Assembly (NCBI GenBank): GCA_029838195.1
Contig: JALGVJ010000017.1
Coordinates: 105,690 to 169,689, forward strand
Direction of reading: 5' to 3'
Origin: Promethearchaeota archaeon
GTDB lineage: Archaea; Asgardarchaeota; Lokiarchaeia; Sigyniarchaeales; SOKP01
DNA length: 64,000 bases
The translations under genes and the position numbers were made by a program. Of the stretch, positions 2,838-20,564 are shown one piece after another. The notes beneath the pieces were generated by a model that saw nothing but the letters and a program-made list of their open reading frames with translations, did no database searches and had not been told where the DNA came from. Position 1 is the first letter of the stretch. Every line of letters starts with the position of its first letter.

Positions 2838-4283
2838 CTAAAGATCTAAGCCCATTTCTTTCAATTTTCGCTTGTTTTCTTGAACTAATTCAGGCGTAAT
2901 GTCATACCATTTCCAGAAAATAAAAATCGTCACGAGAACAATAAACGCCGGAATGAGAGCAGCATGCATGCGAATTCCAAGAAGTGCCAGCTCTGGAGTG
3001 GGACTCACGGCTACTAATTCTGAATAGCTCGATACGCCCTCCACGAACCCCGTTAAATTATGAATGACAGCAAATACAAGTGCCTGTGCAACCGTGCTCA
3101 AGCGAATGAAAAATGCATTAATGCCGTAATATATTGCCGGTTGACGCTTGCCCGTGCGAACACTTAGATCATCAATTACATCCGCCATGGCTGGCGGATC
3201 CACATACCACTGCCCTCCAAGACCAATGCCGAATAAGAATAACGCAATTATGAAAAATATGAAGCTATTGGCGAAGAAAATGGGCAAAAACGTTATGACC
3301 ATGGCAAATCCCGCATAGATGGAAATTTTTTTGTTATTATTCATCTTCTGAGCGAAAAAATTCCAGAGTGGAACCGAAACAAAAGCACCAACTAGCATTA
3401 ATGCCATTAAAATGCTAAGCGCTGAAGCTTGTTCCTGAATAACGAATGTTACCATGTAGGGCGCTGAAGCCGACAAAAAGGCAACAGCACATTGATAACC
3501 GAAAAAGAAGATCACTTTCGTCATAAAGCGCCGATCGGTAATGGATTGACGGGCAATACTGAAAAAATTTTCCATTTCACTTTTTTCTGCGAGTTGTTTT
3601 TGTTCTTCATATCGTTTTCGCATTACTTTATTTTCCCACGTTCCGGGAATCATTAATACAAACAGGCACATGGCAACGGCAACGGAGAGCCAAGCAGAAT
3701 ACCGGTAAGATTCAGGAACTCCCGTCGTTATGAACAAAGGGGCAAAAATAGAACCCGCAACAATACCTGCCATGCCAATAATCGTTCCAATCCCTGTGCA
3801 CGTTCTTCTTTCCTCTAAAGTAGTGAATTTATCCGGGTAGATGGCGACAGCATTAATATTCCAGAGCGTGAATAAAGTATCATATAGGCAAATCATGATG
3901 AGGAGCCACAAAAAGACAAGCCATTGATCATCGACGGGATCCCATTCAAGAGGGACAAGAAATACAGCCAAATAGGAAAAGAGCCAGGGAATGGCACCAA
4001 ATAAGATCCAAGGAAATCTTCGCCCTAATTTTCGTTCCCACGGCATGTGAATTCGTTCTAGGATGTATCCAATCAAGGGATCATTAATAGCATTCCATAC
4101 GGAGAAAATGATAAAGGCCAAGGCAACAAGTCCGACATTTAATCCGATTTCTGCTTCATAAAAGAAAAACGTGAAGAGTCCGAAGGGTCCCGTGATGAAT
4201 TGGCTAAAGAATTGGAAGGTTTGATAGCTTGCCATGATCCATTTTGAATTTTGAGGCGTTGGTTGAATCGCTTTTTCCGTCAT
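2838..4283 (-). CDS. MFS transporter, GPH/MelB-like family
   Basis: WNAINDPLIGY and GRRFPW motifs, ~12 TM; ATG at 4283 preferred to the TTG at 4334. Confidence 0.85.
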   Translation of the reverse strand: MTEKAIQPTPQNSKWIMASYQTFQFFSQFITGPFGLFTFFFYEAEIGLNVGLVALAFIIFSVWNAINDPLIGYILERIHMPWERKLGRRFPWILFGAIPWLFSYLAVFLVPLEWDPVDDQWLVFLWLLIMICLYDTLFTLWNINAVAIYPDKFTTLEERRTCTGIGTIIGMAGIVAGSIFAPLFITTGVPESYRYSAWLSVAVAMCLFVLMIPGTWENKVMRKRYEEQKQLAEKSEMENFFSIARQSITDRRFMTKVIFFFGYQCAVAFLSASAPYMVTFVIQEQASALSILMALMLVGAFVSVPLWNFFAQKMNNNKKISIYAGFAMVITFLPIFFANSFIFFIIALFLFGIGLGGQWYVDPPAMADVIDDLSVRTGKRQPAIYYGINAFFIRLSTVAQALVFAVIHNLTGFVEGVSSYSELVAVSPTPELALLGIRMHAALIPAFIVLVTIFIFWKWYDITPELVQENKRKLKEMGLDL

Positions 4284-4506
4284 TTTTAATACACTTTTAA
4301 TTGAGAATAGTTTAATTATTCCTTTAATTTTCAATTTTTATTTCAAAAAAAAAACCATGTTCCAAAAAGATAAATTTTAATATTTCATTTCGTTTGAGAA
4401 ATTAACCATTATAAAAAAAGGATATAGATTTTTAGAAATCTAAAAGTTACTAACAAAGATGATGAGTAAATAGTAGGGCAACTTTCGAAAATAAAGGAGG
4501 TGAATC

Positions 4507-4965
4507 ATGGTAAGGGAAGAAAACACGATTGTAAAAATAAAATTAAAAAATGGCTTCATTTTTTCGAGTGAATTGAATCATGAGCAGGTAAAACAGCTTG
4601 TTATTGATGAAACCATTGAAAAGGAAGGCAGAGCGCGAGGCCCGGATGCTGCAGAATTATTGGGGCTCGCTATTTTATCTTGTTTGAGCGCCAGTTTTTT
4701 ATTTTGTTTACAGAAAAAAAATCTCACCGTGGACGATTTAGAAACAACAGCAGAAATATCGTTTAAGAAAAATGAGAAAGGATATGTAAGAGTAAAGGCA
4801 ATTGATGTTAAATTAATTCCTAAAAGTACAGATCCGTCCGTATTGCGCAGAATAGAGCAATGCAAGAGAGAAGTGAAAAGTGGACACATGTTTTTTGAAG
4901 AAACGTGCATTATCACCTCCTCGGTAAGAGAAGGAATAAAGGTGACCGTGGACATGGGTTCATGA
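4507..4965 (+). CDS. OsmC/Ohr-family protein
   Basis: GPDAAELL...SC and distal C(IITSS); strong SD GGAGGTGA upstream. Confidence 0.8.
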   Translation: MVREENTIVKIKLKNGFIFSSELNHEQVKQLVIDETIEKEGRARGPDAAELLGLAILSCLSASFLFCLQKKNLTVDDLETTAEISFKKNEKGYVRVKAIDVKLIPKSTDPSVLRRIEQCKREVKSGHMFFEETCIITSSVREGIKVTVDMGS

Positions 4966-5064
4966 AACCTTACATTTTTAAGAAAAAATTTTCATTAAAA
5001 TGCATGACTCAAGTCATTTGAGATGGATTCATACTCATATAAGAATAAAATAGATAATATAAAA
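4811..5064 (+). repeat. 254-bp direct repeat, left copy (osmC 3' end plus downstream DNA)
   Basis: Aligns without gaps to 20311-20564; 18 mismatches by manual count. Confidence 0.95.
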
Positions 5065-6370
5065 CGGGCCAACGGGTTATATTTTCAAGAATCCGGAATC
5101 AAGATATTCAGATTATAAATCCTCTCAAAATCCAAATGATATTAGAGATTATGGTGCCGTTAATGCCTATTATGATAGTGATATACTCACTCAAGAAATT
5201 ATCGGAGAAAATACTGAAGCTATTAATAAAGCTATACAGCGAGGAAGCTTGTTGGGGAAGGTTGTCTTGATTCCCGAAGGAGATTACGTTTGCGGAACAA
5301 TTAAGCTTCAGGGCAATCTAATTTTAAAGATTAAAGGAAATCTGATTGGAAGTCGTGATAGGAACGATTATTCTCCGAAGAATTTTCTTATTGGTGAAAA
5401 TATCAGCAATCTCGTTATTGAAGGAGAAGGAGGTAAGATAATGGGCGAAGGAGAGTATTTCTGGAACAATCCTATACTAAAGCCTCTCGAATCAAATCCA
5501 GAAATTTCTGATATTAGAATGCTTCAATTAAACCACTTTCTAGCAAAACGGGAAAAAAAAGATAACAGACCCTCTCCCTTTATTAGAATCACTGGAAGTA
5601 AAGACATTTTGATCAGAAATCTAATAATAGAAAACTCCCCTGGCTGGACTTTAAGCTTTGAATTATTTAACAATGGTAAAATAAGAGACCTAATAATTCA
5701 CAATAACATCCGAGGGGGTAATGTGAATGGCATAGATATCGTCGGAACCAGTAATGTAAATATTAATAATGTATTGGTTTCCACGGCAGATGATGGTATA
5801 GTGCTTAAAAATCCCACCTCTGTTCCTATGAGTAACATTAAGATTAGAAATGCCAGGATCTCCACAACAGCTAACGGATTTAAGATAATGACTGAAACGT
5901 ATTCAGATATTAACGACGTGTCCTTCACGGATAGTGAGATAATTACAACCGAATTTTTCCCCGGGGCGATTTCTGGTGTTGCTATTGAATCGGTTGATGG
6001 AAGTCATGTGAGTAATATTAAAGTGGACAATATCATAATGAATGGAGTTCTGGGCCCATTATTCATTCGCTTAGGGAATCGCAATAAATATGATACTAAG
6101 GATTTAATGAGTAGAATCGATAATATAAGAATAAGTAATATTTATTGCTATAATTGTCAATTACCAAGTATAATTAGTGGAGTTATGGACAAAGACTCGG
6201 AACTCACGATAACCAATGTCCTTATAAACAATTTTGATATGCAATATCTCGATAATAAAGAATTTCTCATACTTCTCCCATCGGTTCCTGAAAATCCAGC
6301 GGTTTATCAAAAGGTCAATATTATTCCAAGGGCGGTCAATACCCGTGAAATGATTGTTATAGAAGGATGA
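5063..6370 (+). pseudogene. GH28/pectin-lyase-fold glycoside hydrolase, 5'-truncated and probably degenerate
   Basis: Frame open from 5063 (repeat junction) through DIRDYGA...NTEAINKAI with no start codon; NSPGW and DD present but the NTDG motif reads NVNG; aberrant C-terminus. Confidence 0.65.
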
Positions 6371-6668
6371 ATAAATTTCCAAATCTTTCAAATCCTGTGA
6401 GGGATATTTCATCAAATAGAACCTTGATGTTCATTGGAACCATAGATTACAATCTCTCCAGATATCATATCTTGTGCATATGAAATTATCTCTTTTATAT
6501 TCTCTCTGGATATGGTGGAAAGATTTTAAAGAATTTCCTTAAAGTCTTTTCCTTCTTTATCCAATCCAAAATATCCATAACTAGAACCCTAATTCCCTTA
6601 ATAACTGGAGCTCCACCACATACCTCTGGGTCCCTAATAATACTTACATATTTACCTAATTTAATCAC
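6370..6668 (-). pseudogene. DUF433 antitoxin (frameshift and stop) followed by the start of a DUF5615 PIN-toxin remnant
   Basis: IRDPEVCGGAPVIKG then shifted frame KEIL*...RENIKEIISYA; overlapping MNIKVLFDE from 6434. Confidence 0.65.
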
Positions 6669-6749
6669 ACTGACTTTATATTTTAAAGATTGTTGAATTT
6701 TAAATCCACTAATTGCTAGATGTATTATTAATAAAAAAAAGGTATCCAA

Positions 6750-7469
6750 TCAGAGAATTGCCGAAACTGAGAGAAATATCCCGGCACCATTGACTAGAAA
6801 ATGGCATACAATTCCAGGCCAGATATTTTTCAATTTCTGAGCAACATGGGGTATAATTTGGCATGTAATTAACATGAAGGGAATGGCATACCATTTAAAC
6901 ATGTGAAAGCAAGCCCATAAACAACCATGGAGCAATCAAATAAATCTTCCAAAAGCCACTTCTTGACGTGGTAAGATATATGACCGCCACCATAATTCTT
7001 CTCCAAAAATGTTTAAGGATAAAGTTACCAATGTCATCCATAATATAGGTTCCTCATCCGTATACAACTCAGGTAGAGGGAAATTAGTTATCTCATATAA
7101 CAATCCCGCTATAAAATTAAAAAGTAGAGATAGAATCCCAAAAATTAATGCCGCAATAATAGTTATTATCCAACCTTTAGCAGAAAGGTTCGAGAGGCGC
7201 ATGCGCTTACAGAAGTTACTCCAAGCCCAAAGATTTCCTTCTCACTTATATCCTACAATAGCAGCAACAAATAAGCCTCCAGTGAGAAGGGATACTGAAA
7301 AAGAATATAAACCATAATCCGAAAATCCTGCATTCCGTAATATTGGCCATAACCACCAATTACTCCACATGGCAACTAACATTGGAATTCCAAATAAAAG
7401 AAGAGAACTTAATAATCCTATTGGTTTGAGCTCTCTTTATTGATTAATTTGTAATATTTATTGAGTCAT
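6750..7469 (-). pseudogene. CPBP (Abi/CAAX) intramembrane protease pseudogene
   Basis: EELWWR, FH and HxxxN motifs in one frame interrupted by several stops. Confidence 0.8.
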
Positions 7470-7560
7470 ATTTTATAGTGGATCTGAAAGATTCTTATAT
7501 AATTTGGAGACCAATTTTTTAAGCTCATAGATGACTTTCCTTAAGGAACGATATTTAAAG

Positions 7561-9381
7561 TTAGAAAGATATTTTAAGTTTTTGAATGTCCTTATAGATA
7601 TCAGGTGTGAGGGCTTCATAATTATCTCTTTCTGGTAAGAGTACAAATAAAGGATCTTCATGAATATATAAATCGAAACTATCTTTTTTAAGAGAAGATT
7701 TCTTGAGTTTAAAAGTAGATGTGATTTCCAAATCCTTTCTAAATCTTAAGAATAAGGGAATTGCATAACTTGCGAGGTTTTTATTCAAGTGTTCCTTAAA
7801 ATGATTAAAATCAAATTCTTCAAGGTCCGTTTTTAAAACTAAAGTTGCCATTCCTGCTCGTCCATCTGTACCTGGAATTTTCACTCCATATACGCATGAA
7901 AATAATACCTCATCACATGCATTAAGAATCCCCTCTACTTCAGTAGTAGAAATATTGTGTCCCTTCCAGCGAAAGGTATCTCCTATACGATCCACGAATA
8001 AGACGTGATTACATCCTTGATCAAGAACAATATCTCCCGTATTTACATACGCATCTCCTTTCTTAAAAGCATTGCGTATGAGTTTACTTTCAGTGTCTTT
8101 TTTATTTAGATAACCTAAAAATGCAAGCTTATCTGCTTTTGCATTGAATAACAATAGACCCGGTTCATCTTTATCGACCTTTACCAAGAATCCTTCTTCG
8201 TCCCTGATAAGCTCATCATTTTCTGTATCATATTTAACCAATACATAAGGTTTATTACAATATCCAGAGGTTTTATCAAAATTAAAAAAATTGAAGAATC
8301 CTCCTCCCAATTCGGTGGCAGCATAGTACTCTCCTATAGTTTCAATGGCAAATCTGTCCTTGAATTCATTCCAGATCTCGGGACGTAATCCATTTCCTAA
8401 GACAACTCGCACTTGATTATCCTTATCCTCTGGGGTTTGCGGAGCATTTACTAAATAACGACATACCTCTCCCACGTAGTTGAAACAAGTAGCCTCATAC
8501 TTGCGGATATCATTCCAAAAATTAATAATGCTAAATCGCCTAGCAAGGGCAAAAGTACAACCTATATTAAGAGGAGGAGCCCAACCACTTATAAGAGGAT
8601 TAGAATGAAACAATGGAAGGGGACAATATAATGTATCTTCTGGTTCTAAATTTGCTATTAACTTTCCAAACAATAGTCCTCCACAGACTATTCTCTGATG
8701 AGGGATGGGGACTGCTTTTGGTAAACCCGTGGTGCCCGAGGTAAACACATAAGCAAACGTATCAAAAGTCTTGATATTTGCTGTCGTTGGTGGATTTTCC
8801 GCTGGGAATGGCTCCACTTTTTTCATAAGATCTATAAATCCTTCTGGTAATGGAACTTTTCCCTGATCTCTTACAAACAATAAAATTTGTTCCTTGGTCA
8901 ATCCCATGCTTGGTTTAACCGCTTCGAATGCTTCATAACAGGTTTCGTCAATTATTATAATTTTTGAAGGAGAAATCGTAAGAGAGTGTATTAGCGCTTC
9001 TCCCTGAAAATCAGAATTGATAAGGGAAGAAATGACACCGATTTTCGCAAGAGCACTCAAAATAAATAGCAGTTCAAGACGATTTTTCATTAATACCACA
9101 GCAACATCCTTCTTTTTAAGCCCGATGGAGATAAAATAATGAGCATAACGATTAACGCATTCATTGAATTCCTTATAGGTTAATTTTTCATCCTCAAACT
9201 TCACTGCAATTATGTCTGAAAATTCTCTAGCATTTCTTTCTATTAACGTTCCAATGGACATCTTATTTTCCTTCATTCTAGTCATTATTTCTCGAAGGAT
9301 GTAGTCATTTTCAGCATAAAAGTTCCTTAATTTTCTTCGAAATGTTTTCCTGTCAATCTTTAGTTTTATCGATTCTGACAT
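7561..9381 (-). CDS. Long-chain acyl-CoA synthetase, FATP/SLC27-like
   Basis: YVFTSGTTGLPK, YVGEVCRYL, GNGLRP, DRIGDTFRWKG, DGRAGM. Confidence 0.92.
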   Translation of the reverse strand: MSESIKLKIDRKTFRRKLRNFYAENDYILREIMTRMKENKMSIGTLIERNAREFSDIIAVKFEDEKLTYKEFNECVNRYAHYFISIGLKKKDVAVVLMKNRLELLFILSALAKIGVISSLINSDFQGEALIHSLTISPSKIIIIDETCYEAFEAVKPSMGLTKEQILLFVRDQGKVPLPEGFIDLMKKVEPFPAENPPTTANIKTFDTFAYVFTSGTTGLPKAVPIPHQRIVCGGLLFGKLIANLEPEDTLYCPLPLFHSNPLISGWAPPLNIGCTFALARRFSIINFWNDIRKYEATCFNYVGEVCRYLVNAPQTPEDKDNQVRVVLGNGLRPEIWNEFKDRFAIETIGEYYAATELGGGFFNFFNFDKTSGYCNKPYVLVKYDTENDELIRDEEGFLVKVDKDEPGLLLFNAKADKLAFLGYLNKKDTESKLIRNAFKKGDAYVNTGDIVLDQGCNHVLFVDRIGDTFRWKGHNISTTEVEGILNACDEVLFSCVYGVKIPGTDGRAGMATLVLKTDLEEFDFNHFKEHLNKNLASYAIPLFLRFRKDLEITSTFKLKKSSLKKDSFDLYIHEDPLFVLLPERDNYEALTPDIYKDIQKLKISF

Positions 9382-9424
9382 AATTTAGTAATTTAAGACA
9401 TTCTTAAAAAATCTTGCTCAGTGG

Positions 9425-9440
9425 TTATCACTGGTGACAA
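9425..9440. promoter_or_regulatory. Candidate palindromic operator TTATCAC-TG-GTGACAA
   Basis: Near-perfect inverted repeat in the divergent ligase/regulator intergenic region; matches 14207-14222 in reverse complement. Confidence 0.55.
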
Positions 9441-9510
9441 TAACTTTAAATGATGTGGCAGATAATAATTAAGTATTGATTCTTATAAGAATTATTAACA
9501 ATTAGAGAAG

Positions 9511-10209
9511 ATGGCTAGTAAAAAATCTTATAAGAAACTTAAACCCGAGGAATGGAAAAATGAAATCCTTGAATTTTTAGAGAATAATCCATCGGGATTT
9601 ACTATCACCGACATTGCTGAAGAGATAAATTCTACACGTACTACTGTTTCAAAATATCTTTCCTTACTGGAGCAAGAGAAAAAAGTATTATCCAAGGAAA
9701 TTGGCGTTTATAAACTCTATTTCAGTGCGGAACGGAGATTTATGGCATTAAATCTTTTTCAAGCTTACTATAAATCACTATTAATGGGCATAAAGGATAA
9801 GTTTTCAGATAAACAAGATTTTAAAGAAATCGGGTATCAAATTTGCGACAACCTTTTTGATTTCTTCTATAACCAATTTCCAAAGAGTATAAGAGATCAA
9901 ATAAAGAGCTTTAAAGATTTCTTAAAATTCTTTGGAAAAGTCTATCCCGAATTGGACTTCATTTATTCGGATAATTTGACCATACAAGAAAATGTTAATC
10001 TTGAAAATGAAGAGGCCATTTACCAGTTTAAGAACATTGGAATTTTAGACTTTCCACTTGATTTGGAATACCATTTTTATATCATTTCGGGAATGATTGA
10101 GAGAAGTCTAACAAAAATCTTTAAAAAAGGGGGAAAAAGAATATATTCTGACATTCAATCCATCGACAAAAAGAATAAAATAGTCACTCTTACAATACAA
10201 CGTAAGTAG
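9511..10209 (+). CDS. Winged-HTH transcriptional regulator with C-terminal V4R-like domain
   Basis: EILEFL...TITDIA...TRTTVSKYL HTH; C-terminal KEIG...HFYIISGMIE; paralog of 18992-19681. Confidence 0.75.
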   Translation: MASKKSYKKLKPEEWKNEILEFLENNPSGFTITDIAEEINSTRTTVSKYLSLLEQEKKVLSKEIGVYKLYFSAERRFMALNLFQAYYKSLLMGIKDKFSDKQDFKEIGYQICDNLFDFFYNQFPKSIRDQIKSFKDFLKFFGKVYPELDFIYSDNLTIQENVNLENEEAIYQFKNIGILDFPLDLEYHFYIISGMIERSLTKIFKKGGKRIYSDIQSIDKKNKIVTLTIQRK

Positions 10210-10359
10210 GTTATATAATTTTATTTAATTTTAAAGAACCTATCAAGTGTATTTCATAAATACATCTTTATATATCTTCTTTTATTCTACCAAATATAGG
10301 ATTAGGTAAAAACATTAAAATATACTTTTTTGCTTCAATCATCAAACCAAGATACTAAA

Positions 10360-11280
10360 AGATTGTAGATTCTGAAAATAAAATCAATTCTAGGCTTGAT
10401 GTAATTAAATCTACGGAATCATCCCCTAAACGCTTTGATATTCCGCTAGAAGCCCTTTCTTATTTCGAACGAGGTTTTAAGCCATCCTTTTTTAATAAAA
10501 AAGTACTGCCTTATACAATGCGTAGCATGAGAGAGATTAGAAAATCCTTTAAATCAATTAAAAAAACCCTTTAAATCCAAAAACTTCCGTTAATCCAGAA
10601 TTTATTAGATCATTTGAAGAATTTTGTTATAGAATTGGAGCTAGTGCAATCGGATATACCAAAATTCCTCCTGAATTTTTGTTTAAAGACAAGGGAGTAA
10701 TCTTTGATAATGCTATTGTATTTGCTATGGAAATGGATAAAGATAAAATCGCAAAGGCATCCGGTTTAGATGCATTAATCGAAGTTCAAAAAACATATCG
10801 AGATTTAGGGAGGATTGTAAATTCTGCAGCAGAATTTTTACGTAATTGCGGTTATGCCGCTCAAGCCAGTCGTCCTTTGGGAGGAGTTATATTGTATCCC
10901 CGATTGGCAAGATTGGCAAATCTAGGCTGGCAAGGAAGCCATGGCATGTTGATTACACCTCAATATGGTCCTAGAGTTCGTTTAGCAGCGGTTTTCACGA
11001 GCATCTCAAATATACATCTCTCTAGAAACAATACACATGCCTGGATCGAGTCGTATTGTAAAATATGTGGCATTTATATAAAAAAATGTCCTGTAAATGC
11101 CATATATTCAGAACCAATTAAAAAAGATAACGGAGTTATTACACATATAGATGTAAATAAGTGCTTTCCCTATTTCCTGAAAATTATGGATGTTCTGTTT
11201 GCATGGATCGTTGTCAATTCAACCGAATTGGTTATAACAAATTAAAGGCACGCATGATGGAAATAAATAAAAAAAATTAA
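10360..11280 (+). pseudogene. Reductive-dehalogenase (RdhA/QueG)-like Fe-S protein pseudogene
   Basis: ANLGWQGSHGMLITPQYGPRVRL; CKICGIYIKKCP (one Cys lost); second cluster GCSVCMDRC in a shifted frame; another frameshift near 10565; limits approximate. Confidence 0.75.
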
Positions 11281-11467
11281 ATTTTTTTTTATTATGATCA
11301 TTAAGATCAGTTTAAATCTTCTTCTTTTAATAAAGATTATAAGTAAAAATTCAAATTACAATTATTCAAAAAAATGAAATTTTAACAAATAAAAAACTTT
11401 ATTCTGATTTGAAATAATACCAATTTTATTCTATTAGATAAAAAAATAAGGGAAAGTAACGATATAT

Positions 11468-12985
11468 TTAGGTCAAGGCTATTCTTTTCGGATATATGCT
11501 CTGGGCTTGAAGATTCTCGTGGAGTAGACGTTCAATCATTTGATTACGTAATTTCGGTTTAGATTCCCATAAATTCTGTAATTCATTAGGATCATCTTTT
11601 CTATCAAACAAATCTCCATAACCATTTAATCCCGCATAGACAGTTAATTTATGTTTTTCAGTGATTAAATGCCTTAAACGCACATTTATACCAAAATTAA
11701 ACAATTCTTCATCATGTTCAACCAAACATGCTTCCCTAATAGTTTCTTGTGAATCTTGTAAAATCGGTGTCATATCACGCCCTTGCATTCCATAAGGCTG
11801 TTCTTTTCGCTTAATTCCCACCAGCTCCAAAATAGTTTTTGGAATGTCGATTGAGCTAACTAAAGAATCCGTGTGAGTTCCCTTAGTCATTCCGGGCACT
11901 TTCCATATTAAAGGAACTCTTAAAATTCCATCAAAAGGACAAGGTCCTTTTAAAATTAATCCATGGTCACCCATCATGTCCCCATGATCACTGGTATAAA
12001 TTACCATAGTGTTTTTATCCAATCCAAATTTTTCCAATGCCGCTAAGATCTGACCCACTCCATAATCCACCATTGCAACTGATCCATAAGTTCTAGCTAT
12101 GAATTCCTTAACCACCTTCTCCGGCTCAGTCCGTAATACCATTCCCCGAAAAAAGGCATTGTCCAAAAGATCTCCCAAAAAAGGATGATTTTTTAAATTT
12201 TCTTGATCCTTATAACTTTCGGGAAGTTCAATCTTATTTGGGTCATACATATCCCAGTACTTGCCAGGCGGACTGACAGGGTGATGCGGATCTGGAAAAG
12301 AACAATGGAGATAAAATGGTTTGTCTCCATGCTCACCGTTGACGTGATCTTTCAGATAGGATATAGTTCGTTCGGTTATATAGGTTGTAGGATATAGTTC
12401 CTCCGGTATGGGTGATTCACAATGCGTTTTGTTAAAAAATGCTTTTGCTCTTTTCCTAATAATGGGTAAATATTGTGGTGCCCTTTCTTCTAGCCAATCA
12501 AGATAATGCCCACAACAAACATCTCCATGGCCCAAAACCATCTCAACATCTTCAAACCCATAATAAGGACGGGGAAGATTCTTGTCCATTTTATATCGCC
12601 ATTTTTCGGAGAACCAATGATTAACGCTCTCGTAAGAATAGGCGGATTTTTCAAATTTTTGAGCCCAAAATTGTAAGTGCATCTTTCCAATAGCATGAGT
12701 ATGATATCCATTATTATATAAAATTTGTGAAATAGTAGGCACGTTCTCCGGCAAGTTAATGCCATTACTCCTTACGCCGTGCATGTTTGGATATAATCCT
12801 GTTAGCAAGCTTGCTCTGTTTGGAGAGCATATAGGATTAGCACAATAAGCTGAAGTAAAATGCACTCCTTGATCTGCTAATTTGTCCAGATTGGGAGTCT
12901 TCAAGACAGAATTTCCCGCACAACTCATGTGGTCAGCTCGATGCTGATCCGTCATGATAAATAACACGTTCATTTTCTCGCTCAT
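11468..12985 (-). CDS. Cys-type (formylglycine) sulfatase
   Basis: TDQHR, CSPNRASLLTG, GKMH, DPHHP, SDHGD. Confidence 0.93.
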   Translation of the reverse strand: MSEKMNVLFIMTDQHRADHMSCAGNSVLKTPNLDKLADQGVHFTSAYCANPICSPNRASLLTGLYPNMHGVRSNGINLPENVPTISQILYNNGYHTHAIGKMHLQFWAQKFEKSAYSYESVNHWFSEKWRYKMDKNLPRPYYGFEDVEMVLGHGDVCCGHYLDWLEERAPQYLPIIRKRAKAFFNKTHCESPIPEELYPTTYITERTISYLKDHVNGEHGDKPFYLHCSFPDPHHPVSPPGKYWDMYDPNKIELPESYKDQENLKNHPFLGDLLDNAFFRGMVLRTEPEKVVKEFIARTYGSVAMVDYGVGQILAALEKFGLDKNTMVIYTSDHGDMMGDHGLILKGPCPFDGILRVPLIWKVPGMTKGTHTDSLVSSIDIPKTILELVGIKRKEQPYGMQGRDMTPILQDSQETIREACLVEHDEELFNFGINVRLRHLITEKHKLTVYAGLNGYGDLFDRKDDPNELQNLWESKPKLRNQMIERLLHENLQAQSIYPKRIALT

Positions 12986-13005
12986 TTTTAGTTAAGCACC
13001 TTTTT

Positions 13006-14109
13006 TCAATTCCGCTTTCTTTTTTTTAAACCACGTTTATAGTTATAATCATACAATCGCATGTGTTTCGGATCCATAGATTGAAACACTTTTTCTGCTT
13101 CCTCAGGAGGTAAAATTAATATTTCTCCATTTTCTTTTTGAATTACGCAGCCAGAGTTCGTTAGGATTTTATAATTTTTAGCCGTTTCTTTGGGATCTCC
13201 AAAGCAAATATTACTGCAGTTTCCACATGAGATTTGAATATCATAACCAAGATCAACTGATACGTTAAATCCTTTGGAGCCATCGGGAATCTGTGGCCAT
13301 TTTCCTTTTGTCATAGAAGAATGTACTAACAATCGAGTTACCTCATCCTCATCTTCGGGATATTCAAATCTGCCGGGACTCCACGTAGAAAACTTTCCGC
13401 TGTGATGCAAGCCAGTTAATCCCATACATCCAATGATACACCTTCTAATATCAATGCGTTTCGCATAAGAATATTCACGTCCTCCCATCTTAAAGGTAAA
13501 AGCCTCTTTATCAGAAAACATTTTCAGAGGACAGACCCGTGCGCATAATTTGCAATCATTACAAAATGATTCTTCTTCGGGGATGGGGTCCGACGGTTCC
13601 AGTACCGCATCTGTCACCACTGCTCCTAATAGAATAGTAGTACCATAGTCTTTAATTCCGACATTGCCACTCCATCCAAATGAGCCGACACCAGATGCCA
13701 CGGCCACATAACGGAGGCATAATTCTGGTACAACTTTTAATCTCCAACCCGGAATATCTTCCCTAAATTTATTATTCGGGAAGAATGCCGCCCCTTTAAA
13801 CCCCTTTTTTTGTAGCAATACAACCAATTCTTTTTCTATTCTCCAAATCCGTATATATAGGTCAAACATATGTTTTTCAAAATTAGACCTACCATTCGGT
13901 AATTTCTTAGCTAAATAAGCTCTAATGAGTTTTTTGTCTAAAGGCATGGCGAAGCTAATAGCTGATTTAGCTTCGGGCAGCTTATAGGTTATATCCGTGA
14001 TATCCGGAACTCCCGCAAGAGTTTGCTGATTAGCAAAACCAACTCTAATTGCACCTCTTTCACGTAAAAATTGTTCTATTTCCTTGTTTAAACTAATGGT
14101 TCTCACCAA
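13006..14109 (-). CDS. QueG/RdhA-like cobalamin, 2x[4Fe-4S] oxidoreductase
   Basis: SGVGSFGWSGN, CNDCKLCARVCP, CIIGC, STWSPGRF, CGNCSNIC; no TAT signal; 20 bp upstream of the sulfatase. Confidence 0.8.
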   Translation of the reverse strand: MVRTISLNKEIEQFLRERGAIRVGFANQQTLAGVPDITDITYKLPEAKSAISFAMPLDKKLIRAYLAKKLPNGRSNFEKHMFDLYIRIWRIEKELVVLLQKKGFKGAAFFPNNKFREDIPGWRLKVVPELCLRYVAVASGVGSFGWSGNVGIKDYGTTILLGAVVTDAVLEPSDPIPEEESFCNDCKLCARVCPLKMFSDKEAFTFKMGGREYSYAKRIDIRRCIIGCMGLTGLHHSGKFSTWSPGRFEYPEDEDEVTRLLVHSSMTKGKWPQIPDGSKGFNVSVDLGYDIQISCGNCSNICFGDPKETAKNYKILTNSGCVIQKENGEILILPPEEAEKVFQSMDPKHMRLYDYNYKRGLKKRKRN

Positions 14110-14206
14110 TTCTATAATTTTACCTTGAAGTTTAAATTAAAGATTATTATTATAGAGATTAAATATATATAGGAATCGAATCTATTTATAAATTAATGTT
14201 TGGAGA

Positions 14207-14222
14207 TTATCACCAGTGAATA
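14207..14222. promoter_or_regulatory. Candidate palindromic operator TTATCAC-CA-GTGAATA
   Basis: Between the divergent QueG-like genes; same TCACCAGTGA core as 9425-9440. Confidence 0.55.
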
Positions 14223-14241
14223 AGGAAATATAGAATTTAAA

Positions 14242-15390
14242 ATGACTGAAAATAACTCTATTTCATTAGAAGATCAAATCAAGAGTTTAGCACTAAAAGA
14301 AGGAGCAGATTTAGTTGGAATTTGTGAAGCTGCTCCGCTAAGCAATAAGATTTTTTCAGATGCGAGTTTTTTACTAAAAGATGCTCAATCTATTATAAGC
14401 ATCGCGATATCTCAAGACCAAAAAAGCATTGAAAAATATCTTTCAAAGCAAGATCGAGCAGATTTTTGCATTAAGGCTGATGAGATTACACAAAAATTAC
14501 GAGCGATTGGTGAGAAAATTAAGATCTTATTAGAACAAGAAGGATTTAATGCTTTTAACTGCAATATTAACTTCGATTATAGAAATGCCAATCGCAATCC
14601 GACAACCTATAAAGCATTGGATACCCTTGTTTCCCTCATAGACAAGGAAAAATCGGGTGCGGAATTATCTCATAGTGAGAAGAAAACCTTGAGTGCATTA
14701 AAGAAGATGCTTAAAATCGGGATAAGAAAAAATCCCATTGATTTTGTTCCTGAATTCTCTCACCGTTGTGCTGCTGAAGCTGCAGGATTAGGAAGAATAG
14801 GGTGGAGCGGAAATTTGATAACGGAAAAATATGGGGCACGAGTCATGCTGACTTCCGTGATAACGAATGCCACACTCATGCCGGATAAACCCTTAGAAAA
14901 AAATCCTTGTCTAATGTGCAAATTATGCGAAAAAGCATGTCAAGGAGGTTTTTTTGATAAAAAGGAAGAAGAGTGCATTCAAATTGCTAATATGGAAGAG
15001 AAAATTGGTAAAAGAAAATCTTATTCATATTGTGCGGTGATTTGTGGGGGATTTATTGGTCAAAATCGATTTAAAGAGTGGAGCACCTGGAGCCCTTATC
15101 GATTTAAAAGTTATGGTCTTGAAACCATCGATCAATTACCCAATGATGATTCTGTCGATGATATTTACTTGGATATTATGGAAAGGGCGATTCTAGAAGG
15201 TGGTAGGAAAGCTCAAAATGTCTTGAAATTAAATAGAACAATTCTGGTAGGATTACATAACAAGCCAAAAGAAGATTGGATCCCTACGTGTGCCAATTGC
15301 CAAATCATCTGCGGTCCCACCATGCAAGAAAAGAAGAAAAGCCTTAATTTACTCATAAATGGGGGCAATATTGAAGATGGAGATATATGA
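14242..15390 (+). CDS. QueG/RdhA-like cobalamin, 2x[4Fe-4S] oxidoreductase (paralog)
   Basis: AAGLGRIGWSGN, CLMCKLCEKAC, CAVIC, WSTWSPYRF, CANCQIIC. Confidence 0.8.
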   Translation: MTENNSISLEDQIKSLALKEGADLVGICEAAPLSNKIFSDASFLLKDAQSIISIAISQDQKSIEKYLSKQDRADFCIKADEITQKLRAIGEKIKILLEQEGFNAFNCNINFDYRNANRNPTTYKALDTLVSLIDKEKSGAELSHSEKKTLSALKKMLKIGIRKNPIDFVPEFSHRCAAEAAGLGRIGWSGNLITEKYGARVMLTSVITNATLMPDKPLEKNPCLMCKLCEKACQGGFFDKKEEECIQIANMEEKIGKRKSYSYCAVICGGFIGQNRFKEWSTWSPYRFKSYGLETIDQLPNDDSVDDIYLDIMERAILEGGRKAQNVLKLNRTILVGLHNKPKEDWIPTCANCQIICGPTMQEKKKSLNLLINGGNIEDGDI

Positions 15391-15517
15391 TTTAATTTAT
15401 AGCGTAATCTTGAAGTTAATCATAAAATCACATGTCGCTATTCCCTGGTTGGTATCTATTCGAAAAATTTAAAAATTATTTATTAGTAATAATCTTTAAA
15501 AATTAAAAAGTGATCAA

Positions 15518-16810
15518 ATGTCAGGGCGAGAAGGCAGTTCAAAAAAATTGACAAGGTCTTATTTTCTTTATATGGTATTTATTCTAATTCTGGTCCAGGT
15601 TTTAGATTCCTATACTACTTCCTTTCCTACACTCATTCCCTCTCGTATCATAGAAGAATTTTTATCCGGATATCCTGAAAACATTGCTTTATCCTTATTT
15701 ACACTCAGTACGGGGATAGGTACTATGGGCATGTACATTTGTGCATTGAACACGTATTTTTCTGATAAATTTGGAAGGAAAGTGATGCTAGTTGTAACGA
15801 TTTTCGGAATGGCTGGAATCCTTTTTTTAATGAATTTCAGTACCAGCATTATAGATTTCACGATATATTTATTTTTTCTATGGTTCTTCACACGGTCGGA
15901 TATATGGATGATTTTTATCAGTGAAGAGGCCCCGAAAGAGAAGCGAGCTTTCTGGATGCAAGTTATTTTAATTGGAGGAACCGTGGGTGCTATCCTTGGT
16001 CCTATATTGCGTTCTGTATACATAACTGAGACGTCCTCAAATTGGAGAGGTCTTACCTATTTTCCGATTGTCTTTGGAGTCATTTTAGGAGTAATCGCTT
16101 TACTGACGCTAAAAGAACCGAAAATCTTTCAAGAAGATGTGGGAAACAAGTTATCCGGCGGAACTTCAATTTCTTTAAGAAAAAATGTGAAATCCTTGCT
16201 AAAAGCCCCGAATAAAAAAGAATTAATTGCCCTCTTAATAATGAGTTTTGTTTTAGGAACTAATTCCATCTTTAGAAATTTAATGGAGCCTTATATCTTT
16301 GGGGAAGGAATTTTAAATGAAGTACAAATTAGTTTAGTAATTCTCGGAGCCACTCTTGCTGTTTATATAGCATTTCTCTTGATTGGTGTCCTTGCAGACA
16401 GAATTGGCAGGATTCCGCTTCTATATCTTGGTTCAGTTTTAGTACCCATTTCACAAGTTTTATTTGTTATCGGGAGCACGATCCCTGAAATTGCTTTATT
16501 TAGCGGATTATTGTTCGGAGGACTTTCAGCCTTAGGGTATTGGTTGTCATGGATTGTAGTTTCCATGGTGATTCTGGAAGTCGTCCCCACGGACTCCAGA
16601 GGGACAGGAGCGGGCCTAAAATCTCTTTTCGGGGCAGCAGGAATAACTTTAGGTTTCTTTTTTACGAGCTTGTTTACCTATTTATTTGGACTAGGTTTGG
16701 CCGTTATCATCATTAGCTTATCTGTTGGTTTAAACATTCCGTTAATTTATTTCTACGTAAAAGAAACTAAAGGAACGGATCTAAGAGATGTTTATGGACT
16801 AAAATTTTAA
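15518..16810 (+). CDS. MFS transporter
   Basis: SDKFGRK and ADRIGR motif A, terminal ETKG, ~12 TM. Confidence 0.88.
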   Translation: MSGREGSSKKLTRSYFLYMVFILILVQVLDSYTTSFPTLIPSRIIEEFLSGYPENIALSLFTLSTGIGTMGMYICALNTYFSDKFGRKVMLVVTIFGMAGILFLMNFSTSIIDFTIYLFFLWFFTRSDIWMIFISEEAPKEKRAFWMQVILIGGTVGAILGPILRSVYITETSSNWRGLTYFPIVFGVILGVIALLTLKEPKIFQEDVGNKLSGGTSISLRKNVKSLLKAPNKKELIALLIMSFVLGTNSIFRNLMEPYIFGEGILNEVQISLVILGATLAVYIAFLLIGVLADRIGRIPLLYLGSVLVPISQVLFVIGSTIPEIALFSGLLFGGLSALGYWLSWIVVSMVILEVVPTDSRGTGAGLKSLFGAAGITLGFFFTSLFTYLFGLGLAVIIISLSVGLNIPLIYFYVKETKGTDLRDVYGLKF

Positions 16811-16868
16811 TTATAAAAATTTTTTTTTTAATTGAGAAATGGGAGTCTATTTTTAATTGACGGATAAA

Positions 16869-17110
16869 TTACATTTTTAAAAATATTGATACAATATCAC
16901 CGTCCGTTAAAGGCTGGTCCCCATCTCTAAATTTCTGACCAGGATGTTTTGCCGTATCTCCCCATATCATTGCGAAACGGAATTGATTTATAAAATCCTT
17001 GTGCAAGCGCTTGCAAAGCGATTTGAGAGTGTCTCCCTCACGCATTATAATTGGCTCTTTCATATCAGCTTCCTCTTTGGGTGGTTTTAAATACATTTTT
17101 ATTAAGTTCA
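16869..17110 (-). pseudogene. Orphan C-terminal TGS domain of a DRG/Rbg-type GTPase
   Basis: LNLIKMYLKPP...LHKDF...FRFAMIWG..AKHPGQK...L.DGDIVSI; GTPase domain absent. Confidence 0.7.
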
Positions 17111-17256
17111 GTTTAGGTCCAAATCAACAACCCATCCCCGCAACTGTTAAAGAAGTTAAAGAAGTTGTAGTATTAGATTTTTCAAAAGGGATATTCTTAT
17201 TAGTTTTATAAAGTAAGAATAAATGTTAATTAATCGCATTTTCAGTGAATCTTAAA

Positions 17257-18762
17257 TTAGTTATAAGCACAGCGTTCTGGGTATTTAGGTTGAAGTTTAA
17301 TGATTTCTCTAAGAAGTTGGTTGGTTAATTGGTTTTTTAATTCTTTATTCTCCCCCCATAAATTATTAACTTCTTGGGGTTCATTTTCATAGTCATAGAT
17401 ATCTCCAAAAGTATCCAAACCATCATATATGGACAAACGATGTTGTTCGGTTATCAAGGTTCGAACCCGGAATCTTTTGTCCTTCCAAATCTCTTCATCG
17501 TGTTCTATTAATACCTTGTCCCGCACCTTTTTATTCGGATTTTTTAAGATTGATGAAACATCCTCTCCTTGCATTCGTTTGAGGTATTTTTTCTTACCTA
17601 ATCCTAATAGGTTCAAGATGGTAACTGGTAAGTCCACGGTACTTATTAGGGAATTAGAAATTCCCGTGTGGGTTAACCCGGGTATTTTCCATAATAAAGG
17701 CATATTAATCACGCTCCGATAATGAGCAGGACCCTTTAAAACTAAACCATGATCGCCACAATAATCTCCATGATCGCTTGTATAAATTACCATCGTGTTT
17801 TTTGAAAGCCCTGTTTTTTCCAAGGCGTTTAAAATTTTTCCTACCGCATCATCAATCATGGCAATGGAACCATAAGTATAGGCCGTAAATTTTTTTGCTG
17901 TTTGCTCATCCACTTTCTGAGGAAGAAGATGGACAAACCGAGAATCTTTTAAATGTTCTCCTAAAAAGGGATGATTTAACAAGTTCTCAGCATCTTCAAA
18001 ATTATCTGGAAGCTTAATATCTTCGGGATTGTACAAGATCCTATACTTGCCGGGAGGACAAACGGGATGATGTGGGTCATTAAAAGAGCAATGCAAAAAG
18101 AAAGGTTTATCCCCATTATTGCCCTCAGCATATCCTTCGAGGTATTCAACCGTCCGATCGGCAATATAAGAAGTCGGATATAATTCTTCTGATAGGTCTG
18201 TATCATATGTCAAATCATTTATTACTCGTATATTTTTTTTCAACCATTCGACAAATTGAGGATCTCTCTCTTTTATCCATTCAATATAATGACCAGTACA
18301 AACCACTCCATGCCCCGTGGTAAGCGCAGAACACTCTTCAAATCCATAATATGGATTCGGAAAATTTTTAGAATTTAATGTACCGTACAACCATTCAAAA
18401 AGATTTTCATATGATATAACCCCTTTCTTTTGAGGATTTGCATAAAAATTAAAATGCATTTTCCCCACACTACAAGTGTGATATCCGTTTTCTCTTAAGA
18501 TTTCCGAGAGAGTTGGAATGGTTGGATCCAAATTAATTCCATTTGAGCGTGTTTTGTGAACACTTGGATACATCCCGGTAAAGAAACTCGCTCTATTAGG
18601 CATGCAAATAGGAGTGGCACTAAAATATTTAGTAAAAATCATACCATCCTTGGCAATACTGTCAATATTTGGCGTCTTTAAAAAAGAGTGCCCTCTGCAA
18701 CTTAAATGATCAGCACGCTGCTGGTCTGTTATTATGAATAACACGTTCATTTTCTCGCTCAT
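17257..18762 (-). CDS. Cys-type (formylglycine) sulfatase (paralog)
   Basis: TDQQR, CMPNRASFFTG, GKMH, DPHHP, SDHGD; same MSEKMNVLFI start as 11468-12985. Confidence 0.93.
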   Translation of the reverse strand: MSEKMNVLFIITDQQRADHLSCRGHSFLKTPNIDSIAKDGMIFTKYFSATPICMPNRASFFTGMYPSVHKTRSNGINLDPTIPTLSEILRENGYHTCSVGKMHFNFYANPQKKGVISYENLFEWLYGTLNSKNFPNPYYGFEECSALTTGHGVVCTGHYIEWIKERDPQFVEWLKKNIRVINDLTYDTDLSEELYPTSYIADRTVEYLEGYAEGNNGDKPFFLHCSFNDPHHPVCPPGKYRILYNPEDIKLPDNFEDAENLLNHPFLGEHLKDSRFVHLLPQKVDEQTAKKFTAYTYGSIAMIDDAVGKILNALEKTGLSKNTMVIYTSDHGDYCGDHGLVLKGPAHYRSVINMPLLWKIPGLTHTGISNSLISTVDLPVTILNLLGLGKKKYLKRMQGEDVSSILKNPNKKVRDKVLIEHDEEIWKDKRFRVRTLITEQHRLSIYDGLDTFGDIYDYENEPQEVNNLWGENKELKNQLTNQLLREIIKLQPKYPERCAYN

Positions 18763-18863
18763 TTTTATTAGGAAAATTGTTTTCTATTCTTTTTACATTT
18801 AAAGGAGAATATGAAATTCTTGTCAATTAGAAAACTTCATAATTAATAAGTTTTTATACGGTA

Positions 18864-18935
18864 GTGATAATCATCATTAGCATAACACGAAAAATATGAT
18901 GGTTAAGACTCTATTATATGTGATAATCACCATTA
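18864..18935. promoter_or_regulatory. Two copies of GTGATAATCAyCATTA (18864-18879, 18920-18935), candidate operators
   Basis: 16-bp direct repeat with one mismatch, containing the GTGATAA half-site, in the sulfatase/regulator divergent region. Confidence 0.5.
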
Positions 18936-18991
18936 TTTTTTAGAAATAGAAGATCTCCATATAAATGGAATTGTACTAAATAGGTATTATC

Positions 18992-19681
18992 TTGACTAGT
19001 TCAACAGAAAAAAAAGGGAAAGGAACCAATTGGAAAAAAGAAATCCTTGAATTTCTTAACAAGAATCCTTCAGGATATACCATCACAGATATTGCAAAAG
19101 GAATTAAATCCACCCGGATTACTGTCTCGAAGTATCTTTCCTTGCTGAAGAATGAGAAAAAGGTGATCTCCAAAGATATTGGCGTATACAAACTTTATTT
19201 TAGCAAAGATAGAAAGTTTATCGACTTGGGATTGGTTCGGTCTTTCTACAAAGCTTTTTTAAGCGGAATAAAATCTAAAATAACTCGTGTACAAGAATAT
19301 AAGGAGTTAGGCCATTTTATTTCTGATTCCATGTTTAAATACATCATTGAAGTGTATCCCGAAAGTTTGAGAAAACAAATCACATCGTTCAAGGATTTCT
19401 TGCAATTCTTTAGCAAAATGTATCCATATCATGACTTTCTTTATACTAATGACCTGATTATAGAGGAGAATTTGGACCTTGCGAATGAAAAGGGTGTTTA
19501 CAAGTTAAGTAATGTTGAAATTCTCGATATATCGGACAATTTCAAACTTCATTTTTACATATTATCAGGAATTTTTGAACACACGCTTTCCAAGATTTTT
19601 AGACGGAAACCAATTGTCTGTAATATTGAAAAGATTGATAAAAAAAAGAAAGAAGTCGTGATCTCGCTACAACGAAAGTAA
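18992..19681 (+). CDS. Winged-HTH regulator with V4R-like domain (paralog)
   Basis: WKKEILEFL..NPSGYTITDIA...TVSKYLSLL; HFYILSGIFE. Confidence 0.75.
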   Translation: MTSSTEKKGKGTNWKKEILEFLNKNPSGYTITDIAKGIKSTRITVSKYLSLLKNEKKVISKDIGVYKLYFSKDRKFIDLGLVRSFYKAFLSGIKSKITRVQEYKELGHFISDSMFKYIIEVYPESLRKQITSFKDFLQFFSKMYPYHDFLYTNDLIIEENLDLANEKGVYKLSNVEILDISDNFKLHFYILSGIFEHTLSKIFRRKPIVCNIEKIDKKKKEVVISLQRK

Positions 19682-20310: not shown

Positions 20311-20564
20311 AATTAATTCCTAAAAGTACAGATCCGTCCGTATTGCGAAGAATAGAGCAATGAAAAAGAGAAATGAAAAAGAGACACATGTTTTTTGAAG
20401 AAACGTGCATTATTACCTCTTCGGTAAGAGAAGGAATAAAGTTGAACGTGGACATGGGTTCATGAAACCTTACATTTTTAAGAAAAAATTTTCATTAAAA
20501 TACATGACTCATGTCATTTGAGATAAGTTCATGCTCATATAAGAATTAAATAGATAATATAAAA
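20311..20564 (+). repeat. 254-bp direct repeat, right copy (decayed osmC 3' end)
   Basis: Matches 4811-5064; TGC->TGA nonsense change at 20361. Confidence 0.95.

Follow-up and report, generated by a model that had tools for sequence, protein, structure and literature searches.

To our knowledge, only two chemistries have been established for the RdhA/QueG fold, namely reductive dehalogenation and epoxyqueuosine reduction, and we know of no queuosine synthesis in archaea. Here, we describe a gene cluster from the metagenome-assembled genome of an Asgard archaeon (Promethearchaeota-type; 4.5 Mb, 96.6% complete) that encodes two members of the superfamily to which RdhA and QueG belong. The cluster lies in a 64,000-nucleotide stretch of contig C35 (positions 105690-169689), hereafter referred to as the window, and comprises genes for two reductase-like proteins (queA and queB), two sulfatases (sulf1 and sulf2), an acyl-CoA ligase, a transporter, and two regulators (reg1 and reg2). 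The reductase-like proteins belong to what we denote the STWSP clade, and the linkage of STWSP-clade genes with sulfatase genes is conserved and recurrent in Asgard archaea and anaerobic bacteria. A search of the literature accessible to us returned no description of this linkage. We consider it slightly better than even (about 55% probable) that the cluster was acquired and functions as a ligand-inducible island for the catabolism of one or more small organosulfates taken up by the cell, with the sulfatase/reductase pairing probably serving to degrade sulfated organic compounds that are imported.

Reductase-like proteins and their linkage to sulfatases

More than 580 close homologs of queA were identified, mostly from Asgard archaea, and their database label is 'epoxyqueuosine reductase'. 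An exhaustive profile search recovered 2691 representatives at E ≤ 1e-3 and 131 clusters at E ≤ 1e-30, the latter spanning Asgard archaea, Desulfobacterota, Actinomycetota, and others. Within the phylum, the distribution of the clade is patchy and accessory: it was detected in 15 of 151 sampled genomes, 25 of which belong to the family of the window genome and form the basis of the family counts given below. The family alignment revealed several features that are invariant in the clade, including GWSG, CxxCxxCxxxC, C224-x3-C228, STWSP, and a distant CxxCxxxC (nine Cys in all), as well as the basic residues K68, R116, R218, and R247. At 26% identity, queA and queB are true paralogs.

The structure model of queA (pLDDT 89), which ends in a small alpha/beta unit, returned PceA, QueG, and NpRdhA as top Foldseek matches, followed by the B12 chaperones CblD/CblC; the best of these, to RdhA structures, had an E value of 2e-8 and a TM score of about 0.44. 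Likewise, the clade profile matched QueG (E 4.5e-9) and PceA (E 1.6e-6), solely over the core that comprises the cobalamin and first-cluster regions. The model and the invariant Cys motifs show the arrangement that defines the superfamily, in which a B12-binding fold of the nitroreductase type precedes a ferredoxin domain with two clusters.

Neither known family accommodates these proteins. True QueG was rejected since queA and queB score 30.3 and 36.6 bits, respectively, against a TIGR00276 cut-off of 200; the best score of this model in the whole genome is 41.3 bits, and PF08331 (DUF1730) and HEAT models gave no match in queA or queB. RdhA was rejected on scores of 36.1 and 29.4 bits against a TIGR02486 cut-off of 160 and on the lack of a PF13486 match, and the respiratory form of RdhA was further rejected because no Tat signal precedes the conserved domain, which the N-termini enter directly, and no small membrane-protein (RdhB) gene is adjacent. 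The column of PceA Arg305 (GPNVRL; HMM alignment to 4UQU) is Leu or Ile in the clade (YGTTILL) and Tyr in QueG, a comparison made at the level of alignment in which Tyr246 falls outside the aligned stretch. Because queA and queB are far below both cut-offs and lack Tat, RdhB, and Arg305, the STWSP clade is, as judged from sequence, a third branch of the RdhA/QueG superfamily outside both known families.

The genome holds eight QueG/RdhA-like genes. It also encodes CobS and CbiB, and a cobamide is thus plausibly available in the cell; judged from the fold, a cobamide is the probable cofactor of queA and queB. Sulfatase-reductase fusions were sought among long homologs of the clade; the forms of 730-840 aa (P0181, P0182, P0194, and others) proved instead to consist of two or three QueG-like modules in tandem, and GW(S/N)G and CxxCxxCxxxC are present in every module. 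These tandem forms are a weak hint that queA and queB function as a pair.

Neighbors were clustered without prior labels in 80 species-representative loci, and an independent set of 80 metagenome loci was also examined. Sulfatase genes were the most common neighbors of STWSP genes in the first set (20 of 80 loci), and four or five of these 20 loci were bacterial, with sulfatases that are just distantly related. In the metagenome set, 31 of 80 loci had a sulfatase within 3 kb. The estimated baseline for both sets is ~3%, the share of the window genome lying within 3 kb of one of its ~20 sulfatase genes. Where at least 2 kb of downstream flank was present, the sulfatase was downstream on the same strand in 18 of 42 metagenome loci, often 21-138 bp away or right after a flavodoxin gene. 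When 'sulfatase within 3 kb' is mapped as a character on a tree of 89 members of the clade, 14 changes are required, and supported branches force at least 10 of these. The linkage is seen in the queA clade and the queB clade alike (5 of 6 members of the latter are within 3 kb of a sulfatase) as well as in bacterial branches, and in four loci (L014, L031, L035, and L036) the sulfatase lies between two reductase genes.

The two island sulfatases are true paralogs (50% identity) with strong matches to the Sulfatase domain (PF00884; 183.1 and 170.5 bits against a cut-off of 25), and residues C53, P55, R57, D13, Q14, K101, H103, D333, and H334 are invariant across an alignment of 19 sequences. The best match in the PDB is the arylsulfatase-like 4UPI from Silicibacter pomeroyi (E 4.5e-52). 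Because the domain begins at residue 6 in both proteins and leaves no space for a signal peptide, they are cytoplasmic. Enzymes of this type need maturation, and neither anSME nor FGE is encoded in the window, as had been noted in an earlier reading made from its letters alone (hereafter the sequence-only reading). A search of the whole genome identified a canonical anSME on another contig (G000:C9:25206-26276; TIGR03942, 413.5 bits against a cut-off of 349) and no match to FGE, and FGE-dependent maturation was therefore rejected. In a related genome (G144:C42:555-4802), an anSME gene immediately precedes a tandem pair of sulfatase genes of the island subfamily, forming a canonical maturase-sulfatase operon.

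Among the 25 family genomes, the sulfatase subfamily was detected in 20, anSME in 19, and the reductase clade in only six, five of which encode anSME; 14 sampled genomes have the sulfatase subfamily and no clade member. The sulfatases do not depend on the STWSP-clade Fe-S proteins, and the reductases look like optional additions to sulfatase-based catabolism, such that the coupling is one-sided. The suggestion in the sequence-only reading that the Fe-S proteins mature the sulfatases is weakened accordingly, because most genomes with the sulfatase subfamily have no STWSP reductase and anSME tracks the sulfatases.

Gene set, regulators, and borders of the island

Every gene named in the sequence-only reading was recovered in place by open reading frame and family checks of the window, including the two CxPxR sulfatases and the two intact and one decayed reductase genes. 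Also confirmed were their arrangement in three divergent units and the motif that these share, an operator-like box (Table 1).

Table 1. Features of the island and its borders (positions within the window).
Feature	Position	Strand	Remarks
OsmC gene	4507-4965		3' end in left repeat
254-bp direct repeat, left copy	4811..5064	+	OsmC gene 3' end; left island border; 93% identity to right copy
GH28-family glycoside hydrolase	5249..6370	+	within island; PF00295, E 2.8e-17
Long-chain (FATP/FadD6-type) acyl-CoA synthetase	7561..9381	-	NF006134, 676.9 bits vs cut-off 625; divergent from reg1
Operator-like box GTGGTTATCACTGGTGAC	9421..9438	.	ligase/reg1 intergenic
reg1	9511..10209	+	N-terminal winged helix and putative C-terminal V4R/Bet3-fold ligand domain
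Classical RDH-like (TIGR02486-type) Fe-S pseudogene	10359..11280	+	frames 10359-10574, 10562-11245, 11161-11280
sulf1, cytoplasmic Cys-type S1 sulfatase	11468..12985	-	C53-S-P-N-R57 (CSPNR); 20 bp downstream of queA
queA, STWSP-clade member of RdhA/QueG B12/Fe-S superfamily	13006..14109	-	ends 20 bp before sulf1
Operator-like box GAGATTATCACCAGTGA	14203..14219	.	queA/queB intergenic
queB, divergent queA paralog	14242..15390	+	own clade; MFS gene follows after 127 bp
MFS transporter	15518..16810	+	follows queB; weakly similar to metabolite and aromatic-acid:H+ symporters
sulf2, cytoplasmic Cys-type S1 sulfatase	17257..18762	-	CMPNR; divergent from reg2
Two operator-like boxes GTGATAATCAT, GTGATAATCAC	18864..18930	.	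sulf2/reg2 intergenic
reg2, reg1 paralog	18992..19681	+	54% identity
254-bp direct repeat, right copy	20311..20564	+	orphan osmC 3' fragment; right island border; repeat match

The two repeat copies are spaced 15500 apart, and the right copy retains 83% identity to OsmC residues 100-152 with an internal stop. A congeneric genome (L091; G154:C51:20000-32000) has an empty site at which OsmC is directly followed by a 195-aa gene within the uninterrupted order MFS_2, OsmC, 195-aa gene, amino-acid permease, and amidohydrolase. Because these flanks are contiguous in the congener, the 15.2 kb between the repeats is an insertion that bears the whole cluster. No integrase was found in the insertion, and its form fits homologous single-crossover integration via the osmC fragment. 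Between 6370 and 7561, the window has a series of short open reading frames (61-102 aa) that look like remnants of decayed island genes; one of them weakly matches Rce1/CAAX-protease. In another genus (L092; G135:C157:12000-31900), a related cluster of regulator, sulfatase, and QueG-like genes with an MFS and a sulfatase gene abuts its own OsmC ortholog; the osmC neighborhood may be a recurrent landing site for such islands.

The sequence-only reading described the regulators as winged helix-turn-helix (wHTH) proteins with a V4R domain, and the modeled fold is consistent with this. The C-terminal domain of the regulator model matches palmitate-binding Bet3/TRAPPC3 (E 8.5e-6) and also H-NOX and BcsD; we take the Bet3/TRAPPC3 and H-NOX fold to be of the same class as V4R. 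The Pfam V4R model (PF02830) gave no match to the regulators, and their language-model neighbors include HTH_5+V4R clusters at 0.90-0.91. As modeled, the regulators plausibly answer to a hydrophobic inducer.

Sites matching GTGATAATCAC with at most one mismatch occur at 9421, 14203, 18864, and 18920, where 0.9 matches would be expected in the window, and all are confined to the three divergent intergenic regions. The exact palindrome GTGATAATCAC was not found in orthologous loci; the conserved element is an overlapping box, TTATCAC-YRG-TG, rather than the palindrome. A near-identical box, GTGGTTATCACTAGTGTAAAG, lies upstream of regulator orthologs in five loci (L141, L120, L138, L164, and L037), and the conserved box had seven matches in 4.2 kb of regulator-upstream DNA as compared to 0.46 expected. 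Genes of the regulator family are divergently upstream of a reductase gene in five species-representative loci and are within 3 kb in nine metagenome loci.

Paralogs of the island MFS transporter adjoin sulfatases or anSME elsewhere in the genome, and its ortholog in L092 (52%) is directly upstream of a sulfatase. The pseudogene, which resembles a classical reductive dehalogenase (RDH; TIGR02486, E 2e-12), is broken by two or more frameshifts, and its first Fe-S motif has a Tyr in place of a Cys (CxxCxxY for CxxCxxC); intact paralogs occur at G000:C54 and C84.

Elsewhere, many loci have a flavodoxin gene immediately after the reductase gene, and further recurrent partners include DUF169, DUF1848, a FAD-binding oxidase, other QueG-like and Fe-S proteins, and the regulator family of the island. 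We know of no function for DUF169 or DUF1848. Several of these partners form a recurrent Asgard gene string comprising a FAD_binding_4 oxidase, DUF1848, a QueG-like protein, flavodoxin, DUF169, and a sulfatase (L021, L023, L026, L030, L032, L034, L039, and many metagenome loci among L113-L166), with SnoaL, fucosidase, AFOR, or glycyl-radical enzyme genes often nearby. In three loci (L011, L012, and L041), a QueG-like gene and a gene for a 240-aa protein adjoin a beta-eliminating lyase of the tyrosine phenol-lyase/tryptophanase family, an AMP-ligase, and a glycyl-radical enzyme, which suggests an aromatic amino-acid-derived substrate for this sub-branch. Bacterial relatives are found among acyl-CoA dehydrogenase, thiolase, SCP2, AMP-ligase, and TetR genes.

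A second cluster in the window genome, on contig C26 (L088; G000:C26:20000-39000, 3301-12973), encodes a crotonase, a 313-aa QueG/RdhA-like protein, MFS_2, a 307-aa protein, two tandem sulfatases of the island subfamily, and a divergent acyl-CoA ligase. It is a similar gene set assembled from different paralogs in the same genome.

Proposed route and competing explanations

The results above establish what the genes encode, the folds, the conservation of the linkage and of the operator, the presence of anSME, and the status of the cluster as an island; the following order of steps, the use of a cobamide, and every substrate are inferred. The MFS transporter would import the compound, and sulfate would be taken off in the cytoplasm by the two formylglycine sulfatases, for whose maturation the radical-SAM anSME of the genome would serve. 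The soluble queA and queB proteins, which carry two [4Fe-4S] motifs and probably a cobamide and may act as a pair, would then reductively remove or rearrange a substituent of the same molecule, and the FATP-type ligase would turn a carboxylate into a CoA thioester for CoA-dependent degradation. Control would come from the two wHTH regulators, which would sense a hydrophobic ligand and recognize the GTGGTTATCAC-YRG-TG boxes of the three divergent promoters. The substrate is probably a hydrophobic carboxylated organosulfate, because the ligase is of the FATP type, the sensor domain is Bet3-like, and lipid-type CoA enzymes surround the bacterial relatives; loci with fucosidase, GH28, or beta-eliminating lyase genes point to other substrates.

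Part of what the sequence-only reading proposed is borne out by these results. The cluster is coherent, co-regulated, and conserved; the linkage recurs across Asgard archaea and anaerobic bacteria (20/80 and 31/80 loci); its reductases stand apart from true QueG (30-37 bits against a cut-off of 200); and CoA-thioester enzymes accompany such reductases elsewhere. A halogenated or epoxidised substrate found no support; the proteins fail the RdhA model, lack Tat and RdhB, and have Leu/Ile at the position of Arg305, and chlorosulfolipids and bromophenol sulfates are guesses at substrates.

Several observations weigh against reading the cluster as an organosulfate island. Well over half of the clade loci have no nearby sulfatase, and coupling is thus not obligatory; the sulfatase subfamily far outnumbers the reductase in the family genomes (20 versus 6 of 25); and many of the Asgard loci are related to one another, such that the linkage counts overstate independence. 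In addition, cobamide binding is read from the fold alone, and one island gene is already a pseudogene. Finally, contexts are heterogeneous (fucosidase/GH28, beta-eliminating lyase, glycyl-radical enzymes, and lipid-type CoA enzymes), which makes it unlikely that all share one substrate class, and the clade probably has several substrates.

Catabolic reductive dehalogenation, the main idea of the sequence-only reading, is in our view unlikely. Here, the sulfatases would first free a hydroxyl group of a natural product that is both sulfated and halogenated, after which queA/queB would remove halide. Halophenol dehalogenases (NpRdhA/PceA) require a free ortho-hydroxyl, which sulfation masks, and such an order of events would suit them; the fold is nearest to PceA and NpRdhA, and a classical RDH-like gene, since decayed, lies in the same island. 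Putative PF13486-type reductive dehalogenases have also been reported in Asgard genomes, in a study that does not mention sulfatases (PMC6737245). However, that sole classical gene in the island is dead, the scores of queA and queB (36 and 29 bits) are far from the 160-bit cut-off with no PF13486 match, Tat, RdhB, and Arg305 are lacking as described above, and halogen-specific genes were absent from all neighborhoods examined.

It is quite improbable, in our view, that the island genes have no functional coupling and that paralog-rich accessory families (sulfatases, QueG-like proteins, MFS transporters, and ligases) simply accumulate in flexible islands. The cluster is indeed an insertion missing from a congeneric genome and contains a pseudogene and gene fragments, the genome has ~20 sulfatases and eight QueG/RdhA-like genes to draw on, and the linkage is facultative. 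Chance accumulation is nevertheless at odds with operon-like same-strand spacing in dozens of loci, with recurrence in separate clades and in bacteria that have unrelated sulfatases, with a conserved operator box common to three promoters, and with a second assembly of this gene set, from other paralogs, in this genome.

A more radical proposal, which we consider very doubtful, is that STWSP proteins attack the sulfate ester itself, with cob(I)alamin displacing or eliminating sulfate as a pseudo-halide leaving group, whether by reductive desulfation or by vicinal elimination as QueG does with its epoxide, and that they act beside hydrolytic sulfatases on esters that are poorly handled by hydrolysis. 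Cob(I)alamin can react with alkyl sulfates as electrophiles, and the tight, repeatedly evolved adjacency is to sulfatases and not to halogen-related genes. Furthermore, failure of the RdhA and QueG models and the absence of Arg305 from the alignment make another leaving group conceivable, and the invariant K68, R116, R218, and R247 could bind an anion. Such an enzyme would be without precedent, however, and would partly duplicate the work of the hydrolytic sulfatase that shares its operon; for many members of the clade, neither a sulfatase nor any sulfate-related gene lies nearby, and the residue arguments are weak.

A role of the Fe-S proteins in maturing, repairing, or activating the adjacent sulfatases, either as a third route to formylglycine or in support of anSME, would account for the close same-strand spacing of the two genes (20 bp in the island and, in many other loci, 21-138 bp) and for sulfatases sandwiched by reductase genes, yet it is highly implausible given a canonical anSME above its curated cut-off, the close match of anSME to the sulfatase subfamily (19 and 20 of 25 genomes, and 5 of 6 with the reductase), the 14 genomes with the subfamily and no clade member, the many clade members with no nearby sulfatase, and a fold of substrate-reducing B12 enzymes where formylglycine formation is an oxidation.

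A broader and quite unlikely possibility is that the STWSP clade forms a third functional branch of the B12/Fe-S reductase superfamily whose native chemistry involves sulfate esters, either through reductive C-O-SO3 cleavage or elimination or through an obligatory reductive step on freshly desulfated skeletons. If true, anaerobes including Asgard archaea would have a cobamide-dependent organosulfur route that has so far gone unrecognised. With its defined operons, candidate inducer-sensing regulator, and operator, the clade offers a handle on a possible third RdhA/QueG chemistry and could help to explain how sediment anaerobes use organosulfates, which constitute a large sulfur and carbon pool. 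Recognition of the clade also corrects a systematic mis-annotation as 'epoxyqueuosine reductase' in Asgard genomes.

Comparison with described systems

With S1 formylglycine sulfatases, the island enzymes share the Sulfatase domain, an invariant C-x-P-x-R, the metal and active-site residues, and an anSME encoded in the same genome. They differ in being leaderless, and hence cytoplasmic, and in belonging to a subfamily that is often in an operon with B12/Fe-S reductase-like genes. The island regulators resemble archaeal V4R regulators in their wHTH, and their C-terminal domain matches the fold of Bet3 (TRAPPC3); the Pfam V4R model misses them.

The best structural matches to the queA model are RdhA proteins, both PceA (4UQU/4UR3/8Q4H) and the catabolic NpRdhA (4RAS). 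The clade shares with these the core A..G.G..G....G...L..V.T...L.P..P followed by CxxCxxCxxxC, and a second, split Fe-S motif. Like NpRdhA, queA and queB are soluble and cytoplasmic, whereas the reductase domain of NpRdhA is absent from the clade. In contrast to RdhA, the clade has an insert of ~100 residues between the Fe-S motifs that carries the invariant C224-x3-C228 and STWSP, and its genes adjoin sulfatases rather than rdh accessory genes. QueG (5D08, 5D6S) is the best sequence-profile match of the clade and is likewise soluble with an architecture of B12 and two [4Fe-4S] clusters. The clade departs from QueG in that no DUF1730 or HEAT-type tRNA-binding region was detected in it, in its patchy distribution, and in its catabolic neighborhoods.

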